Source: Candidatus Omnitrophota bacterium
GTDB taxonomy: Bacteria > Omnitrophota > Gorgyraeia > Zapsychrales > JANLHA01
NCBI GenBank assembly: GCA_020632535.1
Contig: JACKFJ010000001.1
Coordinates: 26,890-90,889, forward strand
Length of the DNA: 64,000 nucleotides
Direction: 5' to 3'
The notes beneath the pieces were generated by a model that saw nothing but the letters and a program-made list of their open reading frames with translations, had not been told where the DNA came from and did not search any database. The position numbers were made by a program, and so were the translations under genes. Positions within the stretch are counted from its first letter, which is position 1, and every line of letters starts with the position of its first letter. This document shows, piece by piece, positions 6,841 to 39,520 of the stretch.

Positions 6841-9117
6841 ATGAATCGTGAACATCTCAATGAAGTCAAAGGGATTATTGTCTTTGCCCTCGGTGTAATT
6901 TTGTTGGCAAGCTTGGTCTCGTTTGTTCCTGATGATTTGGCGTGGTATACAACGCATCCGAATTCACCCGCAAAGAATCTCATCCGTGTTGTCGGTGCTT
7001 ATAGCGCCGGCACACTTTTTTTTGTCTTTGGGTATAGTGTTTACTTCCTTGTGGTTTTTTTATTCTTCTGGAGTTGGAATAAATTCGCATCTCGCGAAAT
7101 CAAATTTACGGCCGCAAAGGCTATCAGTTTTCTAATTCTTTTTAGTGTCATCAGTGCTTTATTTAGTATGGCCGGCCCACAAGAAGCGTTTGCTCGATTC
7201 AGTCGAGGTGGTTTTGTTGGTTATACATGCGCGGACTTTCTTGTCAATTATTTGGGTCGTATGGGCGCATATGTTATTCTGACTGCCGTTGGAGCTTTGA
7301 CGTTTGTTATCACAGGAGAGCTTTTAGTATCTCCGCTATTGTTTAAAACAACATCGTCATTGAAAGATTTAGCCGCTCAGATGCGGGAAGGCATCAAAAA
7401 TCGTGACATTGATAAGAAAGAATCATCGTCTGCGCTTCGCGTTCGTCCGGCTGTCGTCCCCGACAAGAAAAAACTCTTCGAATTTCCAAAATTAAAGCTA
7501 CCTGTTGCTGTAGCAAATAAAGATAATGCTCAAAATGCTGGCGGCAAGGAGGAGCTGCAAAAAGCTTTGGCAGGAACAAAACCAACTGCGGATGCAACAA
7601 CAAACGTCAAGCCTGTCGATCCCCCCAAGCCCAATATCAAAATTTTAAAAGGCGATGATAAACCCGTCGCGCCATTACCTGAGCCACAAATTATAGGTGA
7701 GTATCATTTGCCGAGTTTGGAATTATTAAATAATCCACCCATTGTTCCGGCGAATCGTTTGCAAAGTGACCTTGCGCAAGGTGCCAAGATTTTGGAATCC
7801 ACATTGGCTGATTTTAATGTGAATGCGCGCGTCGCGGATATTGAGCATGGCCCAGTCATTACGCGGTATGAATTAGAACCGGCGCCGGGTGTTAAAGTAC
7901 AGAAAATTACGTCTCTCGCGGATGACATTGCGCTTGCTATGAAAGCGCAAACGGTACGCATTGTCGCTCCGATTCCGGGAAAAAATCGTGTGGGTATTGA
8001 AGTCCCTAATAGCTCGTCGGCTGCGGTTTATTTAAAAGACGTTTTAGCTCAAAGTCAATTTTCGAATAGCGGTTCAAAGTTGATGCTGGCTTTAGGGAAA
8101 GATATTACCGGCTCGCCACTGATCGCGGATTTGGCGGAGATGCCGCATTTATTGATTGCCGGAACTACGGGATCGGGTAAAACGGTTTGCGTGAACGCAA
8201 TTATTATGTCTATGCTTTTCAATGCTACACCCGATGAATTAAAGTTCTTGATGGTTGATCCTAAAATGGTTGAATTAAGTCAATACAATGATATGCCACA
8301 TATGCTTTGTCCCGCGGTAACGGATACATCGAAGGTTCCGGCCGCGCTAAATTGGGTTGTTGGTGAAATGGAAGCGCGATATCAAACTCTTTCCAAAGCG
8401 GGTGTTCGAAATATTAAAGGATATCACGCGCAGGGTCATAAACTTCCATACATTGTTTTGATTATTGATGAACTTGCGGATTTGATGCAAACCTCAGCCA
8501 AGACTGTTGAAAGCGCGATTACGCGATTGGCGCAATTGTCTCGCGCTGTAGGTATTCATTTGATTTTAGCCACACAGCGACCATCGGTAGACGTTATTAC
8601 GGGTGTTATTAAAGCAAATTTCCCGTCGAGGATTTCTTTTAAGGTCGCTTCCAAGGTTGATTCTCGTACGGTTCTTGATATGAATGGCGCGGAAAATCTT
8701 TTAGGAAAGGGAGACCTTTTATTCATTCGGCCGGGTGACGCTAAACCTATTCGTGGTCAATGTGGATTTGTAACTGATGATGAAGTTAAGCGTGTGATCG
8801 ATTTTATTAAGCCGCAGCAACAACCTGTATACAATGATAAGATTTTAATTCAACAAAAGGCAGCAACTGGTTCAGAAAACGCAATGGATGATGAGTTATA
8901 CGAAGAGGCTTTGCGTTTGGTTATTGAAATCAATCAGGCTTCGGTTTCTATTCTTCAGCGAAGAATGCGATTAGGTTATACCCGTGCGGCGCGACTTATC
9001 GATATTATGGAACAAAATGGTATTGTTGGTCCATATTGTGGCAGTAAGCCGCGTGACATTTTAGTTAATCGGGAAGAATGGCTAATGCGTAATTCGAATT
9101 CTAAAGACAATACTTAA
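6841..9117 (+). CDS. ftsK: DNA translocase FtsK/SpoIIIE
   Basis: N-terminal 4-TM domain, a P/K-rich linker, a motor domain with Walker A GTTGSGKTVCVNAII and Walker B LIIDELADL, and a C-terminal gamma winged helix (SVSILQRRMRLGYTRAARLIDIMEQNGIVG). Confidence 0.95.
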   Translation: MNREHLNEVKGIIVFALGVILLASLVSFVPDDLAWYTTHPNSPAKNLIRVVGAYSAGTLFFVFGYSVYFLVVFLFFWSWNKFASREIKFTAAKAISFLILFSVISALFSMAGPQEAFARFSRGGFVGYTCADFLVNYLGRMGAYVILTAVGALTFVITGELLVSPLLFKTTSSLKDLAAQMREGIKNRDIDKKESSSALRVRPAVVPDKKKLFEFPKLKLPVAVANKDNAQNAGGKEELQKALAGTKPTADATTNVKPVDPPKPNIKILKGDDKPVAPLPEPQIIGEYHLPSLELLNNPPIVPANRLQSDLAQGAKILESTLADFNVNARVADIEHGPVITRYELEPAPGVKVQKITSLADDIALAMKAQTVRIVAPIPGKNRVGIEVPNSSSAAVYLKDVLAQSQFSNSGSKLMLALGKDITGSPLIADLAEMPHLLIAGTTGSGKTVCVNAIIMSMLFNATPDELKFLMVDPKMVELSQYNDMPHMLCPAVTDTSKVPAALNWVVGEMEARYQTLSKAGVRNIKGYHAQGHKLPYIVLIIDELADLMQTSAKTVESAITRLAQLSRAVGIHLILATQRPSVDVITGVIKANFPSRISFKVASKVDSRTVLDMNGAENLLGKGDLLFIRPGDAKPIRGQCGFVTDDEVKRVIDFIKPQQQPVYNDKILIQQKAATGSENAMDDELYEEALRLVIEINQASVSILQRRMRLGYTRAARLIDIMEQNGIVGPYCGSKPRDILVNREEWLMRNSNSKDNT

Positions 9118-9130
9118 CCGATGGGGTTAT

Positions 9131-10057
9131 ATGGCAAATCCAGATGAAAAGCAAAATTCAAATAAAGTCACTCGCCGAGGGCTTCTTTTAAAGGAAACGC
9201 GTGAACGTAAAGGACTGAGTATTGAAACCGTTCATGAAATGACTAAGATTCCTCTCGACGTTTTGCATGCCATTGAAGAGGGTTATACCGTTCGTATGGT
9301 GTCAGCGTATTACTTTAAGGGTTTTATCAAGATGTATGCGAAGTTTTTGGGATTGGATTTTACTTTGGTTTTAGATGAGCCGGTATCAAAAGTATCGTCC
9401 ACTCATGAGGATTCTGATGAAAATGTTTCTGTCGTTTCTGATCCGCAGCATCGTAAGTTTAATGAGTACATTACACGTCAGAATAAGAAGCAAACGATTG
9501 TTGGACTTATTATTCTTGGTATCTGTGTTGTTATTGCTTTAATCGTACTTGTGATTTGGATGAATAGACCGCAGTCGGGAAATCGTGTGCCGGTAGTTAA
9601 AGTTAAAAAAGAAGTACCAAAGAAGAAGTTTCTTGAAAATCAAATTGCGGATCGAAAAATGTTAGATAAAACAAAGAAGAAATCTGTTGCTGAAACGAAG
9701 CCTGAAGTACGCCCGGTGGCAGCACAAACAAGACAAGCCGCAGTTACAGAAGTTGTTGAGGATGTGGTTTCAGAGCGAAATAAGGAAGTATCGAATAAAA
9801 AAGTCAGTTTGACGATTAAATCGCGTGCTGCGGGCTGGTTGCAGGTCAAAGTTGATGGTAATTTGGTTTTTCAATCCACACTACGTGCTGGCGCGGCGGA
9901 ATCATGGCAGGGTGAAAAAAGTATTGAACTTTCAGGAAAAAATATTAATAATCTTGAGTTTGAAGTAAATGGTAAAGTTTTAGGGCAACTTGGTAAATCT
10001 GATCGAGGTGCTCGACGGGTTCTTGTTACAAGTGATGGTTTGTCGGTTAAGAAATAA
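9131..10057 (+). CDS. rodZ: RodZ-like cytoskeleton-associated protein (HTH + TM + DUF4115)
   Basis: N-terminal HTH (LLKETRERKGLSIETVHEMTKIPLDVLHAIEEG), a single TM helix (IVGLIILGICVVIALIVLVIW), a charged linker, and a C-terminal DUF4115-like beta domain (WLQVKVDGNLVFQSTLRAGAAESW). Confidence 0.7.
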   Translation: MANPDEKQNSNKVTRRGLLLKETRERKGLSIETVHEMTKIPLDVLHAIEEGYTVRMVSAYYFKGFIKMYAKFLGLDFTLVLDEPVSKVSSTHEDSDENVSVVSDPQHRKFNEYITRQNKKQTIVGLIILGICVVIALIVLVIWMNRPQSGNRVPVVKVKKEVPKKKFLENQIADRKMLDKTKKKSVAETKPEVRPVAAQTRQAAVTEVVEDVVSERNKEVSNKKVSLTIKSRAAGWLQVKVDGNLVFQSTLRAGAAESWQGEKSIELSGKNINNLEFEVNGKVLGQLGKSDRGARRVLVTSDGLSVKK

Positions 10058-10067
10058 TGATATTAAT

Positions 10068-10167
10068 ATTGCGAGCCTCGGAGACTTAGAGGTCTTTTTA
10101 GGACGAGCCCCGAAGGGGCGTGGCAATTTATCTGATTGCTTCGTTACCCTGCGGGGTTCCTTGCAAT
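10068..10167. repeat. Palindromic intergenic repeat, family B (ATTGC...hairpin...GCAAT units), two units
   Basis: Unit 1: ATTGCgag...GCCCCgaaGGGGCgtgGCAAT (10068-10127). Unit 2: GATTGCttcgttACCCtgcgGGGTtccttGCAAT (10134-10167). Unit 2 aligns with 39424-39458. Confidence 0.7.
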
Positions 10168-10190
10168 GGGGCGTCAATTGAAATGAAGAT

Positions 10191-12094: not shown

Positions 12095-12363
12095 AGACAC
12101 GCAAAGATTTATGTCCGTGGATTGTTGAAGCATTAGAAGGTTTACAGGGTTCAGCCAAGATTGTGAAGGTTAAGGAGTATATTTGGGATCATCATGGGGA
12201 TGAATTGCGTTCTAGCGGCAATTTGCATTTTTCATGGCATGATGATGTTTTTTGGGCCGCAACACAACTTCGTGCCAAAGGTGTTATAAAAAAGGCCAGC
12301 GCGACTTCAAAAAGTGTTTGGTCTCTCGTCGGACATATTGATCCAGTTAAAAGAAAAACATGA
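12091..12363 (+). CDS. Small cytoplasmic protein, possible winged-helix (Mrr-N-like) domain
   Basis: 90 aa, translationally coupled on both sides (ATGA overlaps at 12091 and 12360). The pattern W..AATQLRAKGVIKK....SVWSL resembles the N-terminal wHTH of Mrr-type proteins. Weak call. Confidence 0.4.
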   Translation: MKTRKDLCPWIVEALEGLQGSAKIVKVKEYIWDHHGDELRSSGNLHFSWHDDVFWAATQLRAKGVIKKASATSKSVWSLVGHIDPVKRKT

Positions 12364-12815
12364 AAGACCATATTACCGAATTTTTTTCAACATTTTGTTA
12401 TGTTGGTTATTTTCCATTTGCGGCCGGAAGTTTAGCCACTGTTGTCGGTGGGTTAATAGCTGGCGTTTTGGTTTTGCATCCTTTTGTCGTTCTTTTGCTT
12501 TTTGTGATTGTAACAGCGTTGGGTTTTTTGATGAGTAGCCGTATGGAGCAAATTGCTGGGGAGAAAGATCCGTCGTGTATTGTTATTGATGAGGTTTCTG
12601 GCGCTTTAATCGCTTTTTTTATGTTGCCGTTAAGTTGGCCGGTGTTTATGACGACATTCTTTGTTTTTCGTGCTTTTGATATGTGGAAAATTTATCCTGC
12701 AGATGTGTTTGAGAAGAAAAAGGGTGGTGTCGGTGTCATGATGGATGATATTGTCGCAGGAATTTATACGAATCTGATTATGCAAATTGCGATTCGACTT
12801 GCGGGGATAGTATAA
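12360..12815 (+). CDS. pgpA: Phosphatidylglycerophosphatase A
   Basis: PgpA motifs DPSCIVIDEVSGALIAFFMLP, FRAFDMWKIYPA and GVGVMMDDIVAGIYTNL. Confidence 0.85.
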   Translation: MKDHITEFFSTFCYVGYFPFAAGSLATVVGGLIAGVLVLHPFVVLLLFVIVTALGFLMSSRMEQIAGEKDPSCIVIDEVSGALIAFFMLPLSWPVFMTTFFVFRAFDMWKIYPADVFEKKKGGVGVMMDDIVAGIYTNLIMQIAIRLAGIV

Positions 12816-12816
12816 A

Positions 12817-12908
12817 ATAGGTTGGGTGGTAACCCATAGGCGAATTGAACGCAGCTCCTGCGAAGTAGGAGATCGTTCATTGAGCCGAGGGTTACTCACC
12901 CAACCTAT
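12817..12908 (+). repeat. Palindromic intergenic element, family A copy 1 (54-nt conserved core inside a private 19-bp stem)
   Basis: ATAGGTTGGGTGGTAACCC / core ATAGGCGAATTGAACGCAGCTCCTGCGAAGTAGGAGATCGTTCATTGAGCCGAG / GGTTACTCACCCAACCTAT. The core is ~89% identical to the reverse complement of 24894-24946. It lies between convergent pgpA and cinA. Confidence 0.85.
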
Positions 12909-13375
12909 TCCAAATATTTGGCTAGCATTCTCAATGCGGAATTAACCGCAGCGGTTTTAATATTTAAACGCGTTCCCTTAAAGTGGTATTTTTCACAAAC
13001 AACTTTTTCTTGTCTCGCCACCGCAATATAGGTCAATCCTACAGGTTTATCTTTTGTTCCTCCCGCTGGGCCCGCAATGCCGGTAATGCTTATACCAAAA
13101 TCTGATTTGAGAGTCTTTCGTATGGCTATTGCCATTTTTTCTGCGATGAGGCGACTCACTGCGCCATGTTTCTTAAGGAGCGTAGGAGAGACTTTTAAAA
13201 GTAATGATTTTGCGGTATTCGCATAGACAAGGACACCACCGATAAAATATTGTGAGCTTCCGGGAATGTTAGTCAAGCGATGGGCGAGAAGACCACCGGA
13301 ACAGGATTCGGCAACGCTTATGGTTTTGTGTTTCTTGATAAGACGTTTTGCGATGTGATGTTCAATATTCATCAA
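12905..13375 (-). CDS. pncC: CinA C-terminal-domain protein / nicotinamide-nucleotide amidohydrolase PncC
   Basis: SVAESCSGGLLAHRLTNIPGSSQYFIGGVLVYANTAK and ISITGIAGPAGGT..KPVGLTYIAV are typical CinA_C motifs. At 156 aa, there is no MoCF-binding N-domain. Confidence 0.85.
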   Translation of the reverse strand: MMNIEHHIAKRLIKKHKTISVAESCSGGLLAHRLTNIPGSSQYFIGGVLVYANTAKSLLLKVSPTLLKKHGAVSRLIAEKMAIAIRKTLKSDFGISITGIAGPAGGTKDKPVGLTYIAVARQEKVVCEKYHFKGTRLNIKTAAVNSALRMLAKYLE

Positions 13376-16179: not shown

Positions 16180-16758
16180 ATGAGCGAAGAAAAAAAAGAA
16201 GAGAAACCTGCTGACGTTAAAGCTCCGGCTTCCGATCCTAAAGTGATTTTGCAAGCTTTAGATAAAAGTGCGGCAGCCGAAGTTGCTCAACCGGCTCCGG
16301 CCGCGCCACCAGAAGCCGTCGCTCCAAAAGAAGTTTCGCCACCGGCCTCAGCTGCACCGTCACCAGAATCTACCGCTCCAAAAGAAGTTCCACCACCGGC
16401 TCCAACTGCACCGTCACCAGAATCTGCCGCTCCAAAAGAAGTTCCACCACCGGCTCCAACTGCACCGTCAACAGAAGCCGTCGCTCCAAAAGAAGTTCCG
16501 CCACCGACTCCGACTGCGTCGCCACCCGAAGCTGTTACTCCTGCAGAAATTCCGTCGCCCGTTCCGGTTGTCCCGCCGTCGGCTATTACGCCTTCTGTTG
16601 TAGAATCGACACCGGCTGCTACTTTGGAAACGTCTACTTCTACACCTGAGTCCGTTGCTCCTTCGCCTGCGCCACCGCTGACAACTCCTTTACCCGGACC
16701 TCTTGTCACTGATGCCATGCGTCAGTTGGACGAACTATTAGCCCGTTTTCGTCAATGA
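16180..16758 (+). CDS. Proline-rich tandem-repeat protein (intrinsically disordered), hypothetical
   Basis: Four 18-aa units APKEV(P/S)PPA(P/S)(T/A)APSPES(A/T) plus degenerate flanking copies, with a short C-terminal amphipathic helix (TDAMRQLDELLARFRQ). No signal peptide or TM. The stop overlaps the next start (ATGA at 16755). Confidence 0.6.
   Translation: MSEEKKEEKPADVKAPASDPKVILQALDKSAAAEVAQPAPAAPPEAVAPKEVSPPASAAPSPESTAPKEVPPPAPTAPSPESAAPKEVPPPAPTAPSTEAVAPKEVPPPTPTASPPEAVTPAEIPSPVPVVPPSAITPSVVESTPAATLETSTSTPESVAPSPAPPLTTPLPGPLVTDAMRQLDELLARFRQ
16321..16536 (+). repeat. Tandem repeat, 4 x 54 bp, coding
   Basis: Units start at 16321, 16375, 16429 and 16483 (GCTCCAAAAGAAGTTCCACCACCGGCTCCAACTGCACCGTCACCAGAATCTGCC consensus). 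Locally GC-rich relative to the window. Confidence 0.9.
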
Positions 16759-20339: not shown

Positions 20340-23300
20340 ATGATTAAAAAAGTCATTTCTAGTTTGATGCTGGTACCTTTTGTTGTGTCAATGATCACGC
20401 CAGTAGGGGCGCAAATGTTGCCCGTCTCGGGAACTCGCGTCGGTTTAACCGCTGGCCTCGCCACGGATGGGCTCGGCATTCCCTCGGACATCGCTTCGCG
20501 GTCCTCGGTCAGCTTCCAACCGCCTGTGCTTTTGGGTCTCAAAATTCATCCTGAGAATCCGCTATTGTTTGACTTTATCGTTGATCAAGGGGAAAGCAGA
20601 CTTTCAGAGGACGATCTTAAAGCTGAAACTGAAAAGCTCGTAAAATATTTTCTTGCCGCGTTAACTATTCCTGATAAAGAAGTTTGGGTCAATTTGTCGC
20701 CTTATGAAAAAGACCGCATTATTCCTGATGTTTTGGGTCAGACGACAATGGGTAAGACAATGCTTGAGCAAGATTATCTTTTAAAGCAATTAGCGTCTTC
20801 GCTTACTAATCCCGAAGAAAAGTTAGGGCAGGAGTTTTGGGGTAAGGTGAAGGCACAAGTTGGTGGAAGTGATGTGCCAATGAATACGTTTAATAAAGTT
20901 TGGATTGTCCCGCAAAAAGCGGAAGTGTTAGAAAGTCAGGGTATTGTTTTGGTTGGTGAAAAGCGCTTAAAAGTTATGATGGCGGATGACTACACTGCGA
21001 TGAACATGTCATCCCCGCAATCTCAATCTCTGTCATCCCCGAATGCTCAATCTTTGTCATCCCCGCAATCTTTAAGCGGGGATCCACTGGCAAAGAATGG
21101 ATTCCCGATTAAAGATTTCGGGAATGACAAAAATATTAAAGCATTCGGGAATGATAACAGCAACGTTTCCTCCCAAGTCTTTCGCGACGTGATCCTTCCT
21201 AACATCGAAAAGGAAATCAATGAAGGCAAGAATTTTGCTGATGTTCGCCAGATTTATAATTCCGTCATTTTAGCCGCGTGGTATAAAAAAGCACTCAAAG
21301 AAAGTTTGTTGGGTAAAGTTTACACTGACAAAGGTAAGGTCGCGGGCGTTGAAACCGATGACAAGGATATGAAGCAGAGAATTTATGAGCAATATTTGTC
21401 CGCGTTTAAGAAGGGCGTGTATAACCTTATTAAGGAAGAGTCTGATGTGATAAGTGGTGACATTATTCCTCGTAAGTATTTTTCGGGAGGGTTGAATTTG
21501 TCGGGCGATCAATTGGAGCGTAAAGTTGTTGCTTTGGCAACTATTGAACAAAATTTAAACGCAAGTTCCGGGATTATTGTTGCGACTGTCCAAGGCGTTG
21601 AAAGCGGGGCGTCGGAGCAAGGAGCGGTACAAAGTCAAGTTTCTTCAAGCGCGGTGCAAAATGTGAATTCAACGCAAGCTGGACGGGTTCAGGAAATTGT
21701 TACTTGGTTAAAAAATAAGATGAGAGATTTATTCGGAGAAAAGAGTCTTGTCGAAGTGAAGTTTTCTTCTGATTTGCTTAATCGCTTGCAAGAAATAAGA
21801 GCAGTTAATAACGAAGCTCCTTTTGCTGGTGATATTAATGAGGATACTTTACGAAAAGTTGTTAATTTTCTTAATGGGCATTTTGATGATGCACTATATG
21901 GACAATCAAAGGTTTTATACTATCACAAGGGCTATCATGAACTATTTGCACTGAAAGCAAATGATTTTCTTCCGAATTCGGATGATAGTTTGACACAAAT
22001 TGCTGCGAAAGAAATCGCTTTAAACAATCGTCTTGATGCCGCTGTTGTGATTCTTCGTGATTTATTGAATTTCGAACCATGGACACTTGGGGAACAAGCA
22101 ATGTCTGAAGGGCAAAAGGTTTCTAAATTGGTCGTTTTGGGATTTAAAGTCAATGGACAGTGGGCGAGATATTCTGAATTAAAGCCTGAGTTGACGAAGT
22201 TAGGAGTAATCATTGCCTCAAGTGCGGTCAACAGCGACGGCAAGACAATGGCGGATGTGATTTTAGAAAATAGCGCTTTATTAGAAGGATCACAAAGCGC
22301 GCAATTGCATTTGCTTTGGTTGCTCCAAGAGGATCCATTGATACAATCCCAAAAGCAATCTGAAGATAGGTATAAAGATATTGCGATTTCAGCGGAAAGT
22401 AAATTTAGCGCGATGACCGATGAGCAATTGGGGCTGGAGTATTCGCGATTTGTCGGCCGAAGCCAACCATTTTATCAACCAGCCTTTGTGAAGAATGAGA
22501 ACAAGGGTATTGTCGGATTTCTTGATGTTCTTTCTTTGAAAGATACTAATTATGGTATGACTAAACTGACTAATTTTTTAGATGATTTTGTCGGTAACTT
22601 TAGAAATGTTAGGCCGGGTGCATTGGCAGTAGCGAATGATAATATTCTTGCTGTCTATATCGAAGCAAAAGCATGGATGCGCGAGGTTCTCTCTCGGTCA
22701 GGCGTGACAGCAGAAAGAGATGCAACATTTGAAGATTTAATTTCTGGTTTGCGGCAAAATAGTGCCCGTTCGACAAGTCAGCCAGCTCCAGAAAGTTATT
22801 GGCAATTTGAATTTGCGATTAATGCGTTATTGCAAGATGTCGCGCCTTATCCAGATGCTTTTAGGGAAGATATTTTTACAATCTTTATGAGCTCACTTGT
22901 TGAATACGAGAGGGTTGAGGAAACAAGATGGGTTGAGAGTATAACATTAGAAAATGGTAACAAAGCTTGGGTACTTAGCGACAATGGAGTACATGAAGAT
23001 TTGTTGCAGGATTATGATCGCTTTGCAAAGTTCTTTACTGCCGTTGGTGTTACAAAGGAGAAAGGTCTTAATAGACAAGTTTTGACATTGTCAGAGGATT
23101 TTATAAGTAAAATTAATGCTATTAAAGCTAATGCTTCTAGCGCGATTGAAGAAGCAGATACTGTCTCGGCGCCGATTGTCGCTCCGGGTGGTATTGACTT
23201 TGACCCAACGAATATGAATTTACAAATTAAGCGTGATGGTAAGGGGGTTCCTTTGCCGATTCCGCAGCAGAACTTTGAACAAATCAATATTCAAGGTCTT

Positions 23301-23973: not shown

Positions 23974-24879
23974 ATGAAAGCTATTGAAATAAAAAATTTG
24001 ACCAAGGTTTATGCCAATGGCACACAAGCCTTGAAAAACGTCGACCTTGAAGTTGTGGAGGGTGATTTTTTTGCTCTTTTGGGCGCCAATGGGGCGGGCA
24101 AGACCACGATTATTGGGATTGTTACCGATTTGGTTAAGAAAACGTCCGGCGAAGTCAAAATTTTGGGATGCGATATTGAGCGTGATTTTTCCAAAGCGAA
24201 GAAATTTATTGGTGTTGTTCCGCAAGAAATCAATTTAAATATTTTTGAACGCGTTATTGATATCCTTGTCACGCAGGCGGGATATTTTGGTATTCCTCGG
24301 CGGGAAGCGTCTGTTCAGGCAGAAATGCTTTTGAAGCGGTTGGGGCTGTGGGAAAAACGTTTTGGTGTTCCACGCACTTTGTCCGGCGGAATGAAACGTC
24401 GCTTAATGATTGCCCGCGCGCTTATACATAAACCAAAGGTTTTATTTCTTGATGAACCGACAGCGGGTGTGGACGTCGAAATCCGTCATGAAATGTGGAA
24501 ATATTTAAGGGAACTTAATGGCGAGGGTTTAACGATCCTTTTGACTACGCATTATTTGGAAGAGGTCGAACAGATGTGCCGTAATGCCGCGATTATTAAA
24601 GGCGGGGAAATTATTATGTGTAATTCTGTTAAGAAGTTGGTTCAGTTTATGGATACGGAAGTTTATGTTGTTAGTGTCCAGCAGACTAAAGATGTTTCAT
24701 CATTGCAGCATTTTAAACCAAAAGTTTTGGATGAAACAACGCTTGAGGTAGAGTTAAGTCGGCAAGAAACAATTCATGATTTTGTTTTGGCTTTGACGAA
24801 AACAGGAATGATCATGACCGATATTCGGCCTAAAGGTCATCGTTTGGAAAAACTTTTTTTAGAAGTTTTAAATAAGTAG
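23974..24879 (+). CDS. yadG: ABC transporter ATP-binding protein (ABC-2 exporter, YadG-like)
   Basis: Walker A GANGAGKTT, signature LSGGMKRRL, Walker B VLFLDEPTAGVD. It pairs with a YadH-like permease downstream. Confidence 0.8.
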   Translation: MKAIEIKNLTKVYANGTQALKNVDLEVVEGDFFALLGANGAGKTTIIGIVTDLVKKTSGEVKILGCDIERDFSKAKKFIGVVPQEINLNIFERVIDILVTQAGYFGIPRREASVQAEMLLKRLGLWEKRFGVPRTLSGGMKRRLMIARALIHKPKVLFLDEPTAGVDVEIRHEMWKYLRELNGEGLTILLTTHYLEEVEQMCRNAAIIKGGEIIMCNSVKKLVQFMDTEVYVVSVQQTKDVSSLQHFKPKVLDETTLEVELSRQETIHDFVLALTKTGMIMTDIRPKGHRLEKLFLEVLNK

Positions 24880-24963
24880 CTTTATATTTGTCCTCGGCTC
24901 AATGGACGATCCCCTGCTTCGCAGGGGCTGCGTCTAATTCGCCTATGGACAAATATAAAGCTA
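24877..24963 (-). repeat. Palindromic intergenic element, family A copy 2 (inverted relative to copy 1)
   Basis: A perfect 17-bp private stem TAGCTTTATATTTGTCC / GGACAAATATAAAGCTA encloses the conserved core. The left arm starts on the yadG-like stop codon TAG. The element fills most of the 98-nt gap to the permease start. Confidence 0.85.
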
Positions 24964-24977
24964 CTAAGAAAGTACTT

Positions 24978-25757
24978 ATGCGCACAGCTTTTCAAGAACA
25001 GTGGATTGCTTTTGAAACAATTGTCCGAAGAGAAATCGCGCGGTTTACACGCATTTGGACACAGACCCTTTTGCCACCGGTCATTACTCAAACTTTGTAT
25101 TTTGTGATTTTTGGGAAATTTATCGGGGAGAGAATCGGTGATATTCAAGGTGTTAGCTACATGGCCTTTATTGTACCGGGACTTGTTATGATGGCGGTTA
25201 TCAATAGCGCGTTTTCAAATGTTGTGAGTTCATTCTTTAGTGTCAAGTTCCAACGCAGCATTGAAGAACTTCTTGTTTCTCCGACGTCAAATACGGCTAT
25301 TATTAGCGGTTATGTCATGGGGGGTGTCATTCGCGGTATTCTCGTGGGTGTGATTGTTTTTCTGGTTTCTATTTTTTTTACGCGGCCGACCATTCAACAT
25401 TTAGGGATCATCTTGATTTTTATAATATTGACCGCATTGGTTTTTTCACTGGCTGGTTTAATTAACGCGATTTTTGCGAAAAAATTTGATGATGTGTCGA
25501 TTTTTCCGGTATTTGTTTTGACACCACTGACGTATTTAGGAGGAGTTTTTTATTCCATACACAGTTTGCCGGGATTTTGGCAACAAGTTTCTCTATTTAA
25601 CCCAATTCTTTACATGGTCAATGGCTTTCGTTATGGTTTTTATGGATTATCGGATGTGAGCGTCGGAGGAAGTATTCTTTTTTTGCTCGTATTGACAGGT
25701 ATTTTGACATATGCTAATTTTTATCTTTTACAAAAAGGGACAGGAATCAAAAGTTAA
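24978..25757 (+). CDS. yadH: ABC-2 type transporter permease (YadH-like)
   Basis: From ATG 24978 (MRTAFQEQW...) the protein is collinear with E. coli YadH as I recall it (FTRIWTQTLLPPVITQTLYFVIFG...FIVPGLVMM...LTPLTYLGGVFYS...NPILYMVNGFRYGF). The ORF-track start at 24888 would translate the repeat element. Confidence 0.85.
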   Translation: MRTAFQEQWIAFETIVRREIARFTRIWTQTLLPPVITQTLYFVIFGKFIGERIGDIQGVSYMAFIVPGLVMMAVINSAFSNVVSSFFSVKFQRSIEELLVSPTSNTAIISGYVMGGVIRGILVGVIVFLVSIFFTRPTIQHLGIILIFIILTALVFSLAGLINAIFAKKFDDVSIFPVFVLTPLTYLGGVFYSIHSLPGFWQQVSLFNPILYMVNGFRYGFYGLSDVSVGGSILFLLVLTGILTYANFYLLQKGTGIKS

Positions 25758-30000: not shown

Positions 30001-30774
30001 GTTGGACAGCAGGCAAAGGAAGTTTTTGACAATGCGCAGGATTTTTTGAAAAAAGTCATCGCGCAAAAATCACTGACCGCTAATGCGGTTGTTGGGTTTT
30101 ATCCTGCGAATAGTATTGGTGATGACATTGAGATTTATACAGACGATACTCGTCACGAAGTTTTGGCTAAATTCTGCACACTGCGTCAGCAAAACGAGAA
30201 ACAAGATGGTGAACCGTATTATGCGCTCGCCGATTTTATCGCGCCGAAAGAATCCGGCGTGAAAGATTATTTGGGAACATTTGCGATTACCGCTGGATTA
30301 GGTATTGAGGAAATTATTGCCGAAGCGCAAAAAGATCATAATGACTTCGATATCATAATGGCTAAAGCGATTGCGGATCGCTTAGCGGAGGCTATGGCGG
30401 AATGGCTACACGAAAAAGTGCGCAAAGAATTATGGAGTTATTCTTCGGATGAGCATTTTACGAATGATGAATTGATTCAATGCAAATATAGTGGTATTCG
30501 TCCCGCGCCGGGTTATCCTGCTCAGCCAGATCACACCGAAAAACCGTTATTGTTTAAGCTTCTTGATGTGGAAAAGAGTATTGGCGCGACTTTGACTGAA
30601 AATTATGCCATGTGGCCCGCGTCGTCGATTTGCGGATTGTATTTTGCTCATCCCAAGTCTAAATATTTTTATGTTGGTAAAATCATTAAAGATCAAGTTG
30701 AAGATTATGCTCGTCGGAAGAATATGCCGATTGCCGAAGTTGAAAAGTGGTTAGCTCCAATTCTAGGATATTAA
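27094..30774 (+). CDS. metH: Cobalamin-dependent methionine synthase (full length)
   Basis: 1226 aa with all modules: Hcy S-methyltransferase ([11 protein letters not shown]), pterin-binding, B12 cap and B12-binding ([15 protein letters not shown]), and the AdoMet reactivation domain ([15 protein letters not shown]). Confidence 0.97.
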
Positions 30775-30786
30775 ACAAAAACCAAG

Positions 30787-30887
30787 TAACTCTATTCGGC
30801 GAGTTCCGCAGCAAAGTCGCTTGCCTTAATGCTTTCATTCATAGATAAGCGACTTGTGCGAGGACTGTTTGAGCATGGATAGAGTTA
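30787..30887. repeat. Palindromic intergenic element, distant relative of family A (element C)
   Basis: Private 9-bp arms TAACTCTAT / ATAGAGTTA. It shares the blocks GGCGAGTTCCGCAG and TTTGAGCATGG with family A, and has an inner perfect 9-bp stem AAGTCGCTT / AAGCGACTT (30814-30822 and 30847-30855). It lies immediately 3' of metH and is followed by TTTTT at 30893. Confidence 0.65.
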
Positions 30888-30967
30888 ATCCATTTTTGTT
30901 ATTCATGATTTAAATAATGCACCTTTTGCTTGTCTTCGTAAAATTTAATGATTAAAATAACGCCATT

Positions 30968-33828: not shown

Positions 33829-35323
33829 TTCCTTGAAGTTCAATCAAAAAGCCCAACAAGTCATTGAATATCTGCTCATTATGGCAGCTGTGGTCGCCGG
33901 TGTTTTGGGTATTGCCGGACCTTCTGGGCCGATGCGTAATGCTGTTGAAAAATCTTTAAATAAAGCTGTTGAAACAATCTATCAAGGTTACACATGGCGA
34001 TTAGGTTCGCCGGGTCCCTGTTCTGCGTCATGCGGAATAGGTACGGCTTCGCGTGGTGTATCTTGTCAACGTGAAGACGGCGTTAATGTGGCTGATTCAT
34101 TTTGCGAAGAAGCCAGTGGTGTCACTCGGGCATCTTTAGAAACGGTTGCATGTGATTCTGGAGTTTGCGGAAGCTATGCTTGGGTAGGCGGTGGATTTGG
34201 TGCATGCAGTGCTCTCTGTGGAGGCGGAACACAAACACAAACAGTTATCTGTCGTGATTCAGGGGGAGCAACTGTTGCAGATACATTTTGTGCGAGCGCT
34301 GGGCCTAAGCCAGTCAGCCAGCCTTGTAATACGGGGGCTTGTTATGTTTGGCAATCGGGTGGAGCATGTACAACAACATGTACCGTAGCTTGTGGTATTG
34401 GAAGTTGTTCTCAAGACGTTAGTTGTAAAGACACCGTGTCGGGGACAACGACTGCCGATAGCAACTGTCCTTCCGGAACAAAGCCATCTACTACGATACC
34501 GTGTAATACATCATTAACGTGTGGTTTTCAATGGCAGGTGGGTAGTTGGAGTGCTTGTACTGTGGCGTGTGGAGGTGGAACGAGAACCAGAACAGTGCAG
34601 TGTATTCGTCAGTCTGATGGAACCGCTGTTGCCGATACCAATTGCGATGCAGGATCAAAGCCATCTTCCAGCGGCACGTGCAATACCGTTTCATGTAATC
34701 ATTGGGAATTGACGAGTTCTTGGGGACCTTGCAATAGTGTTTGTGGGTCAGGAACACAGGAAATTATTGTAGAGTGTAAGAATTTGCAAGGAATTGTATT
34801 AGCTGATGATCAATGCGATATTGCGACAAAGCCCAGTAGTACGAGGGCGTGTCCAAGCTTACCGTCTTGTGGATATAGTTGGGGAAGTAGCTTGTGGGGG
34901 TCATGCAGTGTTACATGCGGAACGGGAACGCAAAATCGCACGGTATTTTGTACAAGAACTTTTGATGGCACAAATGTCGATGTTTCTTATTGTCAGGCGG
35001 CAGATCCTAGCGGGGAACCAGCGGCAAGTCAGTCTTGTACAATAGAATGTTATTCTTGGGTTGCTACGTCGTGGGGAGATTGTAGCACGACATGTGGAAC
35101 GGGAACACAATCAAGAAATTATGAGTGTCGTGACGGTAATGGAAATGGTTCTGTAGTCGGCAATAATTTTTGTATTAATGCTCTTGGAGCGCCACCGACA
35201 ACGACTCAAAATTGTAGTGATACATCATCATGTTGTGGAAATGGGACGTGTGATAATTTGCAATCGGTTGGTTATGTCGAGACTTGCAATACCTGTGTGA
35301 ATGATTGCGGTGTTTGTCCGACT
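33829..35323 (+). repeat. Direct duplication, copy 1 (~1.5 kb; 5' part of the TSR gene)
   Basis: Collinear with 36103-37597 at a constant offset of 2274 nt, with no indels seen. My hand alignment found roughly 40-50 substitutions (~97% identity), decaying sharply after ~35255. Confidence 0.9.
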
Positions 35324-35914
35324 TGTTCTGATGGGATACAAAATCAAGGCGAAACCGGTGTTGATTGCGGCGGGCCAAATTGTTCTGCTTGTCCGACATG
35401 TTCTGATGGCATACGGAATCAATCGGAATCAGGAGTTGATTGCGGTGGTCCCTGCCCAGCTTGCGTGACATGTTGGGATGGGATACGAAATCAGGGAGAA
35501 GCTGGTGTCGATTGCGGTGGGCCGTGTCCTGCACCTTGTGCAACATGTGGAGATTTTGTGCAAAACCAAGGTGAAACCGGCGTTGATTGCGGTGGTCCTT
35601 GTCCCGCTTGTCCGACATGTTACGACGGGGTAAAAAATCAAGGAGAAACTGGTGTCGATTGTGGGGGGACGTGTGTAGCTTGCCCTCCTTTACAAATAAC
35701 CGGTTGTGGCTGCGGTAGCTGCCCTGCTGGGGCAATTCCTACAGTTGGTACATTTCCTTTTGGAAGTTTAGGTATGAGGTGTAATAATCCTGGTGGTGGG
35801 TTGAATGGTTATAGTCAATGGCCTGGACTTGGAATATGGATACCCGATACTGCCACACCGTTGTGTTCGAGTCAGTGGTTTGGAGGAGATATGTGCTGGT
35901 TGTTCGCTCCTTAA
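33833..35914 (+). CDS. Prepilin-like (Flp/class III signal) secreted protein with 7 ADAMTS-type thrombospondin type-1 repeats and 5 C-terminal Cys-rich GVDCGG repeats (paralog 1)
   Basis: TTG start with AGGAGA 7 nt upstream, and an in-frame stop at 33815. The N-terminus is MKFNQKA/QQVIEYLLIMAAVVAGVLGIAG. It carries seven ~57-60-aa units of the type FQWQVGSWSACTVACGGGTRTRTVQCIRQSDGTAVADTNCDAGSKPSSSGTCNTVSC, and is extremely Cys-rich. Confidence 0.85.
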   Translation: MKFNQKAQQVIEYLLIMAAVVAGVLGIAGPSGPMRNAVEKSLNKAVETIYQGYTWRLGSPGPCSASCGIGTASRGVSCQREDGVNVADSFCEEASGVTRASLETVACDSGVCGSYAWVGGGFGACSALCGGGTQTQTVICRDSGGATVADTFCASAGPKPVSQPCNTGACYVWQSGGACTTTCTVACGIGSCSQDVSCKDTVSGTTTADSNCPSGTKPSTTIPCNTSLTCGFQWQVGSWSACTVACGGGTRTRTVQCIRQSDGTAVADTNCDAGSKPSSSGTCNTVSCNHWELTSSWGPCNSVCGSGTQEIIVECKNLQGIVLADDQCDIATKPSSTRACPSLPSCGYSWGSSLWGSCSVTCGTGTQNRTVFCTRTFDGTNVDVSYCQAADPSGEPAASQSCTIECYSWVATSWGDCSTTCGTGTQSRNYECRDGNGNGSVVGNNFCINALGAPPTTTQNCSDTSSCCGNGTCDNLQSVGYVETCNTCVNDCGVCPTCSDGIQNQGETGVDCGGPNCSACPTCSDGIRNQSESGVDCGGPCPACVTCWDGIRNQGEAGVDCGGPCPAPCATCGDFVQNQGETGVDCGGPCPACPTCYDGVKNQGETGVDCGGTCVACPPLQITGCGCGSCPAGAIPTVGTFPFGSLGMRCNNPGGGLNGYSQWPGLGIWIPDTATPLCSSQWFGGDMCWLFAP
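35324..35689 (+). repeat. Five tandem coding repeats of 24-25 codons (C-x-D-G-[IV]-x-N-Q-[GS]-E-x-G-V-D-C-G-G-P-C-P-A-C)
   Basis: The units are CSDGIQNQGETGVDCGGPNCSACPT, CSDGIRNQSESGVDCGGPCPACVT, CWDGIRNQGEAGVDCGGPCPAPCAT, CGDFVQNQGETGVDCGGPCPACPT and CYDGVKNQGETGVDCGGTCVACPP. They occur only in paralog 1. Confidence 0.9.
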
Positions 35915-36102: not shown

Positions 36103-37597
36103 AACCTTGAAGTTCAATCAAAAAGCCCAACAAGTCATTGAATATCTGCTCATTATGGCAGCTGTGGTCGCCGGTGTTTTGGGTATTGCCGGACCTTCTG
36201 GGCCGATGCGTAATGCTGTCGAAAAATCCTTAAATAAAGCTGTTGAAACAATCTATCAAGGTTACACATGGCGATTAGGTTCGCCGGGTCCCTGTTCTGC
36301 GTCATGCGGAATAGGTACGGCTTCGCGTGGTGTATCTTGTCAACGTGAAGACGGCGTTAATGTGGCTGATTCATTTTGCGAAGAAGCCAGTGGTGTCACT
36401 CGGGCATCTTTAGAAACGGTCGCATGTGATTCTGGAGTTTGCGGAAGCTATGCTTGGGTAGGCGGTGGATTTGGTGCATGCAGTGTCCTCTGTGGAGGCG
36501 GAACACAAACACAAACAGTTATCTGTCGTGATTCAGGGGGAGCAACTGTTGCGGATACATTTTGTGCGAGCGCTGGGCCCAAGCCAGATAGCCAGCCGTG
36601 TAATACGGGAGCTTGTTATGTTTGGCAATCGGGTGGAGCATGTACAACAACATGTACCGTAGCTTGTGGTATTGGAAGTTGTTCTCAAGACGTTAGTTGT
36701 AAAGACACTGTGTCGGGGACAACAACTGCTGATAGTAATTGCCCTTCTGGAACAAAGCCATCTACCACGATACCGTGTAATACATCATTAACGTGTGGTT
36801 TTCAATGGCAGGTGGGTAGTTGGAGTGCTTGTACTGTGGCGTGTGGAGGTGGAACGAGAACCAGAACAGTGCAGTGTATTCGCCAATCTGATGGAACCGC
36901 TGTTGCTGATACCAATTGCGATGCAGGATCAAAGCCATCTTCCAGCGGCACGTGCAATACCGTTTCATGTAATCATTGGGAATTGACGAGTTCTTGGGGA
37001 CCTTGCAATAGTGTTTGTGGGTCAGGAACACAGGAAATTATTGTAGAGTGTAAGAATTTGCAAGGAATCGTATTAGCGGATAATCAATGTGATATTGCGA
37101 CAAAGCCCAGTAGTACGAGGGCGTGTCCAAGCTTACCGTCTTGTGGATATAGTTGGGGAAGTAGCTTGTGGGGGTCATGCAGTGTTACATGCGGAACGGG
37201 AACGCAAAATCGCACGGTATTTTGTACAAGAACTTTTGATGGTACAAATGTTGATGTTTCCTTTTGTCAGGCGGCAGATCCTAGCGGGGAACCAGCGGCA
37301 AGTCAGCCTTGTACAATAGGATGTTATTCTTGGGTTGCTACGTCGTGGGGAGCGTGTAGCACGACATGTGGAATAGGAACACAATCAAGAAATTATGAGT
37401 GTCGTGATGGTAATGGAACTGGTCCGGTTGTTGGCGATAATTTTTGTATTGATGCTCTTGGAGCGCCACCGACAACGACTCAAAATTGTAGTGATACGTC
37501 ATCATGTTGTGGAAATGGGACGTGTGATAATTTCCCATCGCTTGGATATACTGAACCGTGTGATACTTGTTCGAATGATTGTGGGACTTGTGTTACT
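36103..37597 (+). repeat. Direct duplication, copy 2
   Basis: See copy 1. Homology starts 4 nt before the TTG start codon, so each copy has its own upstream region and RBS. Confidence 0.9.
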
Positions 37598-38407
37598 TTT
37601 TCTTGTACAGGTACTCCTGTCAATCGGTCAGAGATTTGCCCCGGAGCGGATGTGGGGCTAACGGCAAACACGCCATATAGGTTTTCGCCGGTATGTAACG
37701 GAACCAAGTGCCAAACAGTTTGTTCTTATGGATATTATTATTTTAATTCTAATAATTGTCGTACAAATCGGTGTTTAGGTGTCTCAGGAGGAGCTCAACT
37801 TTGTGGTAATGGACAGGATACGAATATTCCCACACACAATTATCGCGGGACTTTGGCGGCAAGCTGTGATGGTGTGACCAAATGTCAATCAACGTGTCGT
37901 AGCGGATATACATTTACTGGTAGTGCTTGTTATATTGATTATGAGTGGAGGACTGCTTCATGCGGAGCGTGTAATGCAATTTGTGGAGGCGGGACACAAG
38001 TGTGTACATATGCCTGTTATCAAAAATCGACTAATTTGCCTGTTGGATCTTCAGAATGCACGAGCCGAGGGATAGCTTCTCCCCCAGCAAATCAATCTTG
38101 TAATACAATTTCCTGTTGCGGAGCTGGGTATCTTTCTAATCCTAGATATGGCGGGTATGATTTGTTTGGTAGCGGTTCTTACGTTGCTAGTACAGCGACG
38201 GCTTATTGTCAATCAATAGGGTGCACAGGAAATAATGGTTATACGGTGACGACAGCAGGTGGACCGTTTCCTTGTGAATTTGCATATGTGACTGCGCCTC
38301 TGGTTATCGGCAATGTGAATTGTGCAGCTAATTCGTGGTGTGGTGTGTGTGTTGGGGGTAGTTTTATTGGATTTCAATATAAAATGAATTCAGTGAGTTG
38401 TTATTAG
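36107..38407 (+). CDS. Prepilin-like secreted protein with 7+1 ADAMTS-type thrombospondin type-1 repeats and a different Cys-rich C-terminal head (paralog 2)
   Basis: TTG start with GAGGT upstream. The first ~497 aa are nearly identical to paralog 1. The unique C-terminal ~270 aa contain two C..C...C..GY.F....C modules and an eighth TSR (YEWRTASCGACNAICGGGTQVCTYACYQKS...SSECTSRGIASPPANQSCNTISC). Confidence 0.85.
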   Translation: MKFNQKAQQVIEYLLIMAAVVAGVLGIAGPSGPMRNAVEKSLNKAVETIYQGYTWRLGSPGPCSASCGIGTASRGVSCQREDGVNVADSFCEEASGVTRASLETVACDSGVCGSYAWVGGGFGACSVLCGGGTQTQTVICRDSGGATVADTFCASAGPKPDSQPCNTGACYVWQSGGACTTTCTVACGIGSCSQDVSCKDTVSGTTTADSNCPSGTKPSTTIPCNTSLTCGFQWQVGSWSACTVACGGGTRTRTVQCIRQSDGTAVADTNCDAGSKPSSSGTCNTVSCNHWELTSSWGPCNSVCGSGTQEIIVECKNLQGIVLADNQCDIATKPSSTRACPSLPSCGYSWGSSLWGSCSVTCGTGTQNRTVFCTRTFDGTNVDVSFCQAADPSGEPAASQPCTIGCYSWVATSWGACSTTCGIGTQSRNYECRDGNGTGPVVGDNFCIDALGAPPTTTQNCSDTSSCCGNGTCDNFPSLGYTEPCDTCSNDCGTCVTFSCTGTPVNRSEICPGADVGLTANTPYRFSPVCNGTKCQTVCSYGYYYFNSNNCRTNRCLGVSGGAQLCGNGQDTNIPTHNYRGTLAASCDGVTKCQSTCRSGYTFTGSACYIDYEWRTASCGACNAICGGGTQVCTYACYQKSTNLPVGSSECTSRGIASPPANQSCNTISCCGAGYLSNPRYGGYDLFGSGSYVASTATAYCQSIGCTGNNGYTVTTAGGPFPCEFAYVTAPLVIGNVNCAANSWCGVCVGGSFIGFQYKMNSVSCY

Positions 38408-39368: not shown

Positions 39369-39520
39369 ATTGCACGGAACGTAGTGACGAAGTCCAGAAA
39401 GGACTTAGTTTGTGCGCAATCTAGATTGCCGCGTCGTCCCTACGGGACTCCTCGCAATGGGTATCAAAATAAATTTACCTTGCGGGACTCCTCGCAATAG
39501 GCATTAAAATAAATTTATCT
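39369..39520. repeat. Palindromic intergenic repeat, family B: two full units plus a 37-nt local tandem duplication
   Basis: Unit 1: ATTGC...AGTCCagaaaGGACT...GCAAT (39369-39420). Unit 2: GATTGCcgcgtcGTCCCtacGGGACtcctcGCAAT (39424-39458). GGGACTCCTCGCAATGGGTATCAAAATAAATTTACCT (39444-39480) is repeated at 39484-39520 with 4 differences. Confidence 0.75.

Follow-up and report, generated by a model that had tools for sequence, protein, structure and literature searches.

How does a hairpin whose outer arms share no sequence from copy to copy come to lie at the ends of unrelated genes, and what preserves its interior once it is there? This question is raised by a 64,000-nt stretch of Candidatus Omnitrophota DNA (hereafter, the window), which carries two copies of a hairpin of roughly 90 bases that we call the Family A element. 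An earlier examination of the letters of this DNA (the sequence-only reading) had described both copies and had suggested that they represent a structured RNA module, a small unit that inserts into the loops of existing hairpins, or a relative of repetitive extragenic palindromic (REP) elements. With related genomes now included, the view that we favor, tentatively and with slightly less than even confidence, is that Family A is a lineage-restricted, non-coding, REP-like mobile hairpin that bears a GTAG or ATAG tag, is read as a folded single strand, and is selectively kept in place. More broadly, it is best filed as a real structured element of mobile origin that is under selection, and as an architecturally new member of the REP-like interspersed hairpins.

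Family A hairpins share a bipartite internal-loop motif

The window copies lie at positions 12816-12909 on the forward strand (copy 1) and 24877-24963 on the reverse strand (copy 2). Their sequences and coordinates are as previously described, apart from one additional base on each side of the copy 1 palindrome. A repeat finder recovers the shared core as an inverted match with 89% identity (12834-12890 versus 24892-24948) and also detects the self-complementary arms that border each copy. Conservation between the copies extends to the innermost CC/GG pair of the arms, which brings the core to 57 nt. Exactly two copies are present in the 64 kb according to an unfiltered search with a covariance model that spans the core and 7 bp of arm, and a scan for the two conserved blocks that allows mismatches agrees. 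As RNA, copies 1 and 2 are predicted to fold with energies of -55.5 and -46.8 kcal/mol, respectively (z about -9 to -10), and no shuffled sequence is as stable. The corresponding DNA folds give z scores of -9.4 and -10.4, and the reverse strands of both copies fold nearly as well.

The cores differ at six positions, which include two compensatory pairs of changes, and copy 2 carries one A.C mismatch, all as had been reported. One T/C difference that had been placed in the apical loop belongs instead to a 7-bp apical stem capped by a GAA triloop; the pair concerned, the second of this stem, is G.T in copy 1 and G-C in copy 2. In copy 1, the outer arms form 18-20 bp interrupted by a single bulge, and in copy 2 they form 17 perfectly paired bp. 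As the sequence-only reading had recognized, these near-perfect helices have no sequence in common; they are unrelated beyond the inner few pairs, and are thus not the conserved terminal repeats of an ordinary miniature inverted-repeat transposable element (MITE), a possibility for which that reading had left room.

Three more copies are found in relatives. Two reside in a sister genome, the metagenome-assembled genome (MAG) Omnitrophota_Kpj58rc with ENA accession ERZ24842383, and one is carried by a Logan contig of a third lineage, designated L020 and derived from SRR33708443. We refer to the five copies as w1 and w2 (window), k1 and k2 (sites 1 and 2 of Kpj58rc), and L020. Only two blocks, CCRTAGGCGAATT and TGAGCCGAGG, are invariant across all of them, and the longer block A of copy 1 is the same in all five apart from a purine (A or G) at its position 3. 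The blocks form two purine-rich internal loops flanking a GGC/GCC mini-helix next to tandem G.A pairs, as had been drawn from the window copies. In full, the motif consists of a closing CC/GG, a 3x2 loop RUA/GA, the helix GGC/GCC, and a loop GAAU(U)/YUGA with the tandem G.A pairs. Helices that are free in sequence extend from both sides, namely a basal stem of 17-23 bp on one side and a middle stem with an apical hairpin on the other. Arms, middle stem, and apical hairpin all vary by mirrored substitutions. Judging from the aligned copies, Family A is defined by this bipartite internal-loop motif, with variable helices on either side.

This layout reverses the usual case of conserved ends around a free middle. 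In Family A, it is a 23-nt internal-loop motif that does not change while the surrounding helices turn over. The motif would therefore offer a compact candidate site for a protein, be it a RAYT-like enzyme or an RNA-binding factor.

Several known motifs were compared with the element by inspection and rejected. A kink-turn has a C-stem, a 3-nt bulge, and tandem G.A/A.G pairs on the bulged strand. In Family A, the loop RUA is followed by GGC rather than GA, and the tandem G.A pairs sit in a symmetric 4x4 loop with no bulge. The 11-nt tetraloop receptor has the same topology, CC-(3 nt)-G/C-(2 nt)-GG, with different loop bases. The sarcin-ricin/loop E motif, group II intron domain V, and CRISPR repeats were likewise set aside.

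Filled and empty sites reveal a history of insertion

Copy 1 occupies site 1, between the convergent genes pgpA and cinA. Copy 2 occupies site 2, between the ATPase and permease genes of an ATP-binding cassette (ABC) transporter, on the strand opposite to the operon. The Kpj58rc genome is colinear with window positions 2431-34884 at 88-91% DNA identity; at each of its two orthologous sites, the element is present and oriented as in the window. Four to five more distant relatives (L011/L012, L013, L015, L016, and L019) have empty sites. Among these, pgpA and cinA are separated by 20 nt in L011, and the two genes overlap in both L013 and L016. The ATPase and permease genes have 1 nt between them in L011 and L019 and 3 nt in L015, overlap in L013, and have no hairpin at their junction. 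Because the genes overlap or are only 1-20 nt apart at empty sites, this comparison argues that the whole 90-120 nt, arms included, is an insertion. Moreover, since the ABC junction had no earlier hairpin, the arms would have come with the insertion or arisen later.

The empty pgpA-cinA site of L011 bears a perfect 9-bp hairpin, GCTGGTTGC-TATTA-GCAACCAGC, across the pgpA stop codon (L011:2565-2587). The only sequence that it has in common with the window arms is a 5-mer, which is not significant, and a derivation of the arms from the flanks of empty sites was rejected.

These sites also bear on the earlier proposal that pre-existing hairpins or terminators at gene ends receive the 57-nt core in their loops. 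Arms that are unrelated between copies are what such a process would leave behind, and a few REP families do reside inside palindromes (GTAG-23 of T. roseum and CGTC-1 of H. neapolitanus; PMC3733652). The L011 hairpin could even be viewed as a target of this kind. However, in four relatives the ATPase and permease genes overlap or lie 1-3 nt apart with no hairpin, the pgpA-cinA overlaps in L013 and L016 speak against an earlier hairpin at site 1 as well, and the L011 hairpin offers no more than the shared 5-mer. The window, furthermore, is almost devoid of other long perfect hairpins (15 bp or more) that might serve as targets. We consequently regard loop insertion as quite improbable.

The fifth copy suggests that the element has moved repeatedly. 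On L020, whose ATPase is 85% identical to that of the window, the ABC junction spans 121 nt and holds a 99-nt hairpin in the orientation of copy 2 (-68.9 kcal/mol, z -12). This hairpin matches the other four copies exactly in CCRTAGGCGAATT and TGAGCCGAGG, and its basal arms are unrelated to theirs. Its middle stem reads GGTCC/GGACC versus GGACG/CGTCC, a two-sided change at two pairs, and in place of the apical domain of the other copies it has a 12-bp stem and a 9-nt loop that are unrelated to it. In a tree built from 541 aligned residues of three genes, L020 groups with the empty-site relatives L015 and L019 (bootstrap 100%), and the window and Kpj58rc form a separate clade (100%).

On this tree, two independent gains at the ABC junction appear more parsimonious than a single gain that was precisely lost three times. 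Two independent insertions at one junction would in turn imply real mobility, together with a target preference or strong filtering for tolerated sites. The available genomes thus show that the whole hairpin has inserted at the 3′ ends of unrelated genes at no fewer than two sites, most likely three times, and that it is inherited vertically after insertion. A possible target-site duplication is seen in the flanks, with TAA on either side of k1 and L020 and TAAG on either side of w2. However, w1 and k2 have no clear repeat, and TAA is frequent at gene ends.

The ABC ATPase/permease junction seems prone to gaining hairpins and appears to have served as a landing place more than once. Another Omnitrophota lineage, L021, has an unrelated 116-nt hairpin there in the other orientation (9103-9218; also L022:1582-1697; -60.9 kcal/mol, z -5.8). 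Its center, CC-GUA-G..C-GA-GG, recalls the outer loop of Family A. With a score of 9.3 bits (E about 1) and neither block A nor block B, it was rejected as a member of the family.

Loops are conserved while stems covary

The Kpj58rc copies played no part in the discovery of the element, and the contrast in rates described here is therefore not an effect of ascertainment. Neutral divergence between the window and Kpj58rc amounts to 31% at 4-fold degenerate sites (1081/3468), with transitions making up 62% of the differences. By comparison, the 21 unpaired core positions differ in just 1 of 42 comparisons (P=3e-6 versus neutral), and the whole core differs in 9 of 114 (P=2e-9). The motif is also invariant across lineages whose synonymous sites are near saturation. 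These rates indicate that the invariant motif is under purifying selection at each locus, or that it is homogenized from other copies.

Such conservation is difficult to reconcile with a decaying relic without function, for which a drift of 31% is expected and only 2-8% is seen. Perhaps the core, which is a quasi-palindrome, could instead be a double-stranded DNA operator for a dimeric DNA-binding protein, but mirrored substitutions and indels are not expected of a duplex operator. An operator or a relic is hardly credible in our estimation.

Changes in the stems come in matched sets. Five transitions have occurred in the copy 1 lineage, and these comprise two compensated pairs and one G.T; the random chance of obtaining at least two compensated pairs is 2e-4. 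In a count of all pairs, 7 of 23 have changed on both sides with 97.8% of cells paired, a result that none of 500 shuffles equals and that collapses in controls with slid partners. When L020 is added, five of the seven inner basal-stem (arm) pairs are found to have changed on both sides. The alignments therefore indicate that all stems stay paired via mirrored changes. The earlier suggestion of stems that are free to vary around conserved loops is well served by this strong covariation among five copies and by the apparent purifying selection on the unpaired blocks.

Covarying stems and invariant loops are the classic signature of functional RNAs. Thus, it is possible, though on balance doubtful, that Family A is a domesticated cis-acting RNA motif. 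In this case, a host RNA-binding protein or RNase (such as RNase III or a loop-specific protein) would bind or process the loop motif in 3′ untranslated or intercistronic regions. The motif would set mRNA decay, mRNA processing, or the expression ratio of adjacent genes, and mobility would explain its spread only. Purifying selection on the resident copies at each locus argues for such a local role, and since no space is left for its own promoter, the element has to be transcribed together with its neighbors. Precedents include the ERIC and Correia elements, co-transcribed hairpins with effects on mRNA stability or cleavage by RNase III (PMC2229807, PMC2649163).

Other observations fit this explanation less well. 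The flanking genes are functionally unrelated, and the mRNA at the ABC site is the reverse complement of the motif, in which the tandem G.A pairs become C.U/U.C mismatches. There is no G.U among the approximately 78 arm base pairs, and most arm changes are of the transversion type. A comparison with Rfam, which the sequence-only reading had recommended, revealed no known family. Specifically, the window has no match at gathering score in Rfam 15, a scan around copy 1 at E<=10 returned only a chance traJ_5 match, and a scan at E<=1 of the two element-bearing sister-genome loci (L008 and L010) returned nothing. Finally, the C-GAA-G triloop is better known as a stable mini-hairpin in DNA, where Hirao et al. 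reportedly found it to be very stable.

Outer arms may be corrected against each other

The orthologous arms of the window and Kpj58rc differ by four substitutions and three inserted bases at site 1 and by three and two, respectively, at site 2. Each substitution is mirrored in the partner arm, the 2-nt indels are mirrored as well, and the arms within each genome are 95-100% complementary. Among 33 aligned arm pairs, 7 have changed on both sides and none on one side alone; under unconstrained drift, about 14 one-sided changes and a single two-sided one would be expected. At 0.21 per pair, two-sided change comes close to the neutral rate per site. Transversion-type changes, for which no wobble intermediate is possible, account for five of the seven in the arms, whereas 62% of neutral changes are transitions, and no G.T occurs in the roughly 78 arm pairs. 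From this comparison, which involves a small sample and AT-rich arms that are hard to align, we infer that hairpin template switching in the DNA corrects one arm to match its partner, besides or instead of selection on paired mutations.

A template-switch mechanism that corrects quasi-palindromes is known in E. coli (PMC7202029). Family A resembles the products of such correction, or of palindrome gene conversion, in having near-perfect arms that diverge at about the neutral rate and in having mirrored indels. Template-switch correction is a process and not an element family, however, and it would erase asymmetric internal loops. Because these loops are invariant here, selection would have to act on them. 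Family A presents a natural experiment on arm maintenance, in which selection can be set against templated correction.

The origin of the arms is a related matter. They may have been carried by the element and then randomized, with their inner 7 bp still alike (TAAGCCC in k1 versus TAAGTCC in k2), or they may have been generated locally. In an extension of the latter idea that we consider unlikely, the mobile unit would be the core hairpin only, and it would build its outer arms anew wherever it inserts. With the core hairpin as primer, fold-back or template-switch synthesis would produce an inverted copy of the local flank, and the palindrome would grow up to the neighboring stop codons. Continual arm-to-arm correction would then keep the arms perfect under neutral drift. 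If true, this would be a mode of repeat propagation and palindrome birth that is not described for REPs or MITEs, beside a host-selected role of the loops.

Family A resembles REP elements in part

In the REP-like interpretation that we favor, the functional unit would be the folded single strand. The bipartite motif would be a putative recognition surface for a trans-acting protein that reads this strand, and the likeliest candidate would be an HUH/Y1 (RAYT-like) enzyme that acts on single-stranded DNA. The element would necessarily be co-transcribed into the 3′ or intercistronic mRNA of its neighbors and would form a very stable hairpin there. Its near-perfect arms would be kept partly by arm-to-arm templated correction, and not by selection on two independent mutations alone.

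Several features link Family A to the GTAG REPs. In these repeats, an imperfect palindrome has an unpaired tag at its foot, stem and loop are separated by di- or trinucleotides that are not complementary, and the inner helices are GGC/GCC (PMC3733652). TnpA-REP, in turn, requires a folded single-stranded palindrome with a bulge and a conserved motif before it (PMC8266576). Family A likewise has an unpaired tag, which is GTAG in two of the five copies (k1 and L020) and ATAG in w1, w2, and k2, before an imperfect palindrome that is broken by non-complementary di- or trinucleotides and has a GGC/GCC inner helix (PMC3733652, PMC8266576). GTAG REPs are found no more than 20 bp from the 3′ ends of open reading frames (ORFs) of convergent or co-directional genes, and their termini often give the neighboring ORF its stop codon (PMC3733652). 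Similarly, Family A is extragenic and tight against ORF 3′ ends. At all three loci it lies 0-5 nt from the upstream stop codon of convergent or co-directional ORFs, and its outer arms contain the stop codons of its neighbors. Compensatory stem changes, which distinguish sub-families of GTAG REPs (PMC3733652), are common to both, as are vertical inheritance and long persistence (PMC3733652, PMC3116915, PMC8266576). Thus, the tag, the GGC/GCC helix, and the position at ORF 3′ ends favor the earlier suggestion of a REP-like element, whereas the size of the unit and the predominance of ATAG do not.

These discrepancies are among a number of points that weigh against a REP-like identity. In a GTAG REP system, the same genome encodes a cognate RAYT whose gene has REPs on its flanks (a REPtron). 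Just five copies of Family A at two loci are known, and no RAYT, other transposase, or integrase is encoded in the 64-kb window or in the ~39 kb of sister-genome sequence (loci L005-L022 are also without a RAYT). The ATAG tag of three of the five copies reflects a first-position change, which falls outside the published degeneracies of GTAG at positions 2-3 or to GTGG (PMC3733652). GTAG REPs are short units of 20-40 nt with a 5-13-bp stem. By contrast, the Family A unit measures 53 nt in the window and Kpj58rc and ~65 nt in L020, to which a 17-23-bp stem is added. REPs form inverted doublets and are numerous in their genomes, whereas Family A is a single unit within copy-specific arms, and its copy number appears low, with two in 64 kb.

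Selection and orientation raise further difficulties for the REP-like interpretation. Purifying selection on resident copies, if correctly identified, would be unexpected for a purely selfish repeat and points to a role at each locus. The two copies in the window lie 12 kb from each other and face in opposite directions, with copy 2 antisense to its operon. Only one strand has the purine-rich loops and the C-GAA-G triloop, and the mRNA of the ABC operon carries the other. An attempt to determine the acting strand from wobble pairs gave evidence that is split 1:1, with the G.T of copy 1 opposed by the A.C of copy 2, which is G.T on the other strand. Lastly, the TAA repeats flanking k1 and L020 may not mark a target duplication, as TAA is common at gene ends.

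Other repeat classes differ more fundamentally in architecture. REPINs have conserved ends and a free, compensating spacer, whereas Family A is conserved inside and has a copy-specific outer stem of 17-23 bp (PMC3116915). Integron attC sites have conserved outer R''/R' boxes and a variable center, and Family A is again the opposite. Among MITEs, known examples of Correia/CREE (Neisseria), ERIC/IRU (enterobacteria), and RUP/BOX (pneumococcus) elements alter mRNA stability or are RNase III substrates (PMC2649163, PMC2229807, PMC10969869). Like the Correia, ERIC, and RUP elements, Family A is a ~100-bp non-coding insertion that forms a long hairpin in transcribed intergenic DNA, and it also shows the presence/absence polymorphism of MITEs between related genomes in its filled and empty sites. 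However, these elements have conserved terminal inverted repeats and defined target duplications (e.g., TA), whereas the arms of Family A are unrelated between copies.

Genomic context of the window copies

The genes of the window, whose homologues by name point to Candidatus Omnitrophota, have housekeeping and polysaccharide-biosynthesis functions, and the features surrounding the two copies are listed in Table 1. Copy 1 occupies the entire gap between pgpA and cinA. It had been described as lying exactly between the two convergent stop codons; the pgpA stop codon ends one base before the arm, and the cinA stop codon lies inside the 3′ arm. At site 2, the spacer that separates copy 2 from the permease gene includes a weak Shine-Dalgarno-like sequence (AAGAAAG; GAGAAGG in the sister genome). 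No sigma-70-like promoter is present at either window copy.

Table 1. Features of the two Family A sites in the window
Feature	Positions	Strand	Remarks
pgpA, left neighbor of copy 1	12360..12815	+	PF04608; stop codon 12813-12815, ends one base before the arm
Copy 1, 5′ arm (outer closing stem, copy-specific)	12816..12833	+	Pairs with 12891-12909, one bulged T; mirrored changes versus sister-genome orthologue
Copy 1, block A (CCATAGGCGAATT)	12834..12846	+	Closing CC, loop ATA, strand GGC, loop GAAT, first T of middle stem
Copy 1, middle stem, 5′ strand TGAACG	12846..12851	+	Pairs with 12874-12879; G-C -> A-T compensated versus other copies
Copy 1, apical domain	12852..12873	+	Loop CAG, 7-bp stem CTCCTGC/GTAGGAG with one G.T, GAA triloop, loop AT; one compensated pair and one G-C -> G.T change
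Copy 1, middle stem, 3′ strand CGTTCA	12874..12879	+	
Copy 1, block B (TGAGCCGAGG)	12881..12890	+	Loop (T)TGA, strand GCC, loop GA, closing GG; identical in five of five copies
Copy 1, 3′ arm	12891..12909	+	Includes cinA stop codon (CTA at 12905-12907, + strand)
cinA (PncC-type domain), convergent right neighbor of copy 1	12905..13375	-	PF02464; stop codon inside 3′ arm
ABC-2-type transporter ATPase, 5′ of copy 2	23974..24879	+	Stop codon TAG 24877-24879 forms first three arm bases
Copy 2, whole hairpin	24877..24963	-	Arms 24949-24963 and 24877-24891, core 24892-24948; antisense to ABC operon
14-nt spacer CTAAGAAAGTACTT, copy 2 to permease ATG	24964..24977	+	Belongs to DNA missing from empty sites
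ABC-2 permease, 3′ of copy 2	24978..25757	+	ATG at 24978

The location of copy 1 had also led to the suggestion that it could double as a bidirectional terminator. Indeed, a duplicated intrinsic terminator would suit a very stable hairpin placed precisely between convergent stop codons at site 1. However, there is no hairpin plus T-run terminator matching the full hairpin at either window copy, and no T-run adjoins the stem on either side or on either strand. Copy 2 and the L020 copy lie inside a two-gene ABC transporter operon, and termination has no need of 23 invariant unpaired and mini-helix bases. A terminator is therefore very unlikely.

Searches of wider sequence collections

GTDB representative genomes and JGI metagenome contigs were scanned for ATAGGCGAATT..CATTGAGCCGA, which returned only four chance matches in coding DNA; this pattern was chosen before L020 and is blind to copies of the L020 type (GTAG tag, CTGAGCC). 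The same scans did not return the window's own copies, and thus the source genome is absent from, or masked in, these collections. Identical sequence was encountered only in short Logan contigs (SRR12358675/6). Four scans of IMG/VR viral contigs, including one with the broader pattern TAGGCGAATT..TGAGCCGAGG, yielded nothing. Likewise, a profile of four ORFs that run through the core, aimed at copies in over-extended ORFs, had no match among 5.8 billion proteins. An extension of the window by ~4 kb with Logan contigs contained no further copy.

Interspersed palindromic repeats are well studied in Proteobacteria, whereas Omnitrophota are known almost only from metagenomes. Our literature search found no such repeats described for Omnitrophota. 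Should a genome-wide census confirm the pattern, the REP/RAYT picture would come to include another phylum and another architecture; with no more than a handful of copies, Family A would be a curiosity.

Additional repeats in the window

Several other repeated or self-complementary sequences were observed. Between metH and a response-regulator gene (window 30769-30900; L009:16807-16937 in the sister genome) is a 131-nt hairpin with 22-nt terminal inverted repeats. The window and its sister genome carry this hairpin in opposite orientations (global alignment score 94 for the reverse complement versus 26 direct), and it is not at the junction in L011 or L015. It may be an invertible segment or a representative of a second hairpin-element family. 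A nested long hairpin at window 21007-21154 has 37-nt arms that are 86% complementary and is made of 24-nt units (TGTCATCCCCGCAATC..) and their complements; it cannot be aligned with the sister genome.

A 40-nt repeat, GATTGC..CCCTRCGGGRYTCCTYGCAATGG, is located just upstream of genes at window positions 10147-10186, 39438-39477, and 39478-39517, and at L006:7788-7811 in the sister genome. It may be similar to a hairpin repeat that occurs widely in MAGs from groundwater, where it is often mistranslated as short hypothetical proteins.

Repeats are also present within coding regions. The ORFs at 33833-35914 and 36107-38407 encode adjacent large cysteine-rich repeat proteins, and 300 nt of the two are 99% identical (33831-34130 and 36105-36404). 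Their Kpj58rc counterpart matches the Pfam family TSP1_ADAMTS, a thrombospondin type 1 repeat that is a eukaryote-like domain. Finally, another large ORF contains four to five tandem 54-nt units that are 71-90% identical (window 16304-16573), in a region that aligns with the sister genome at only 75%.

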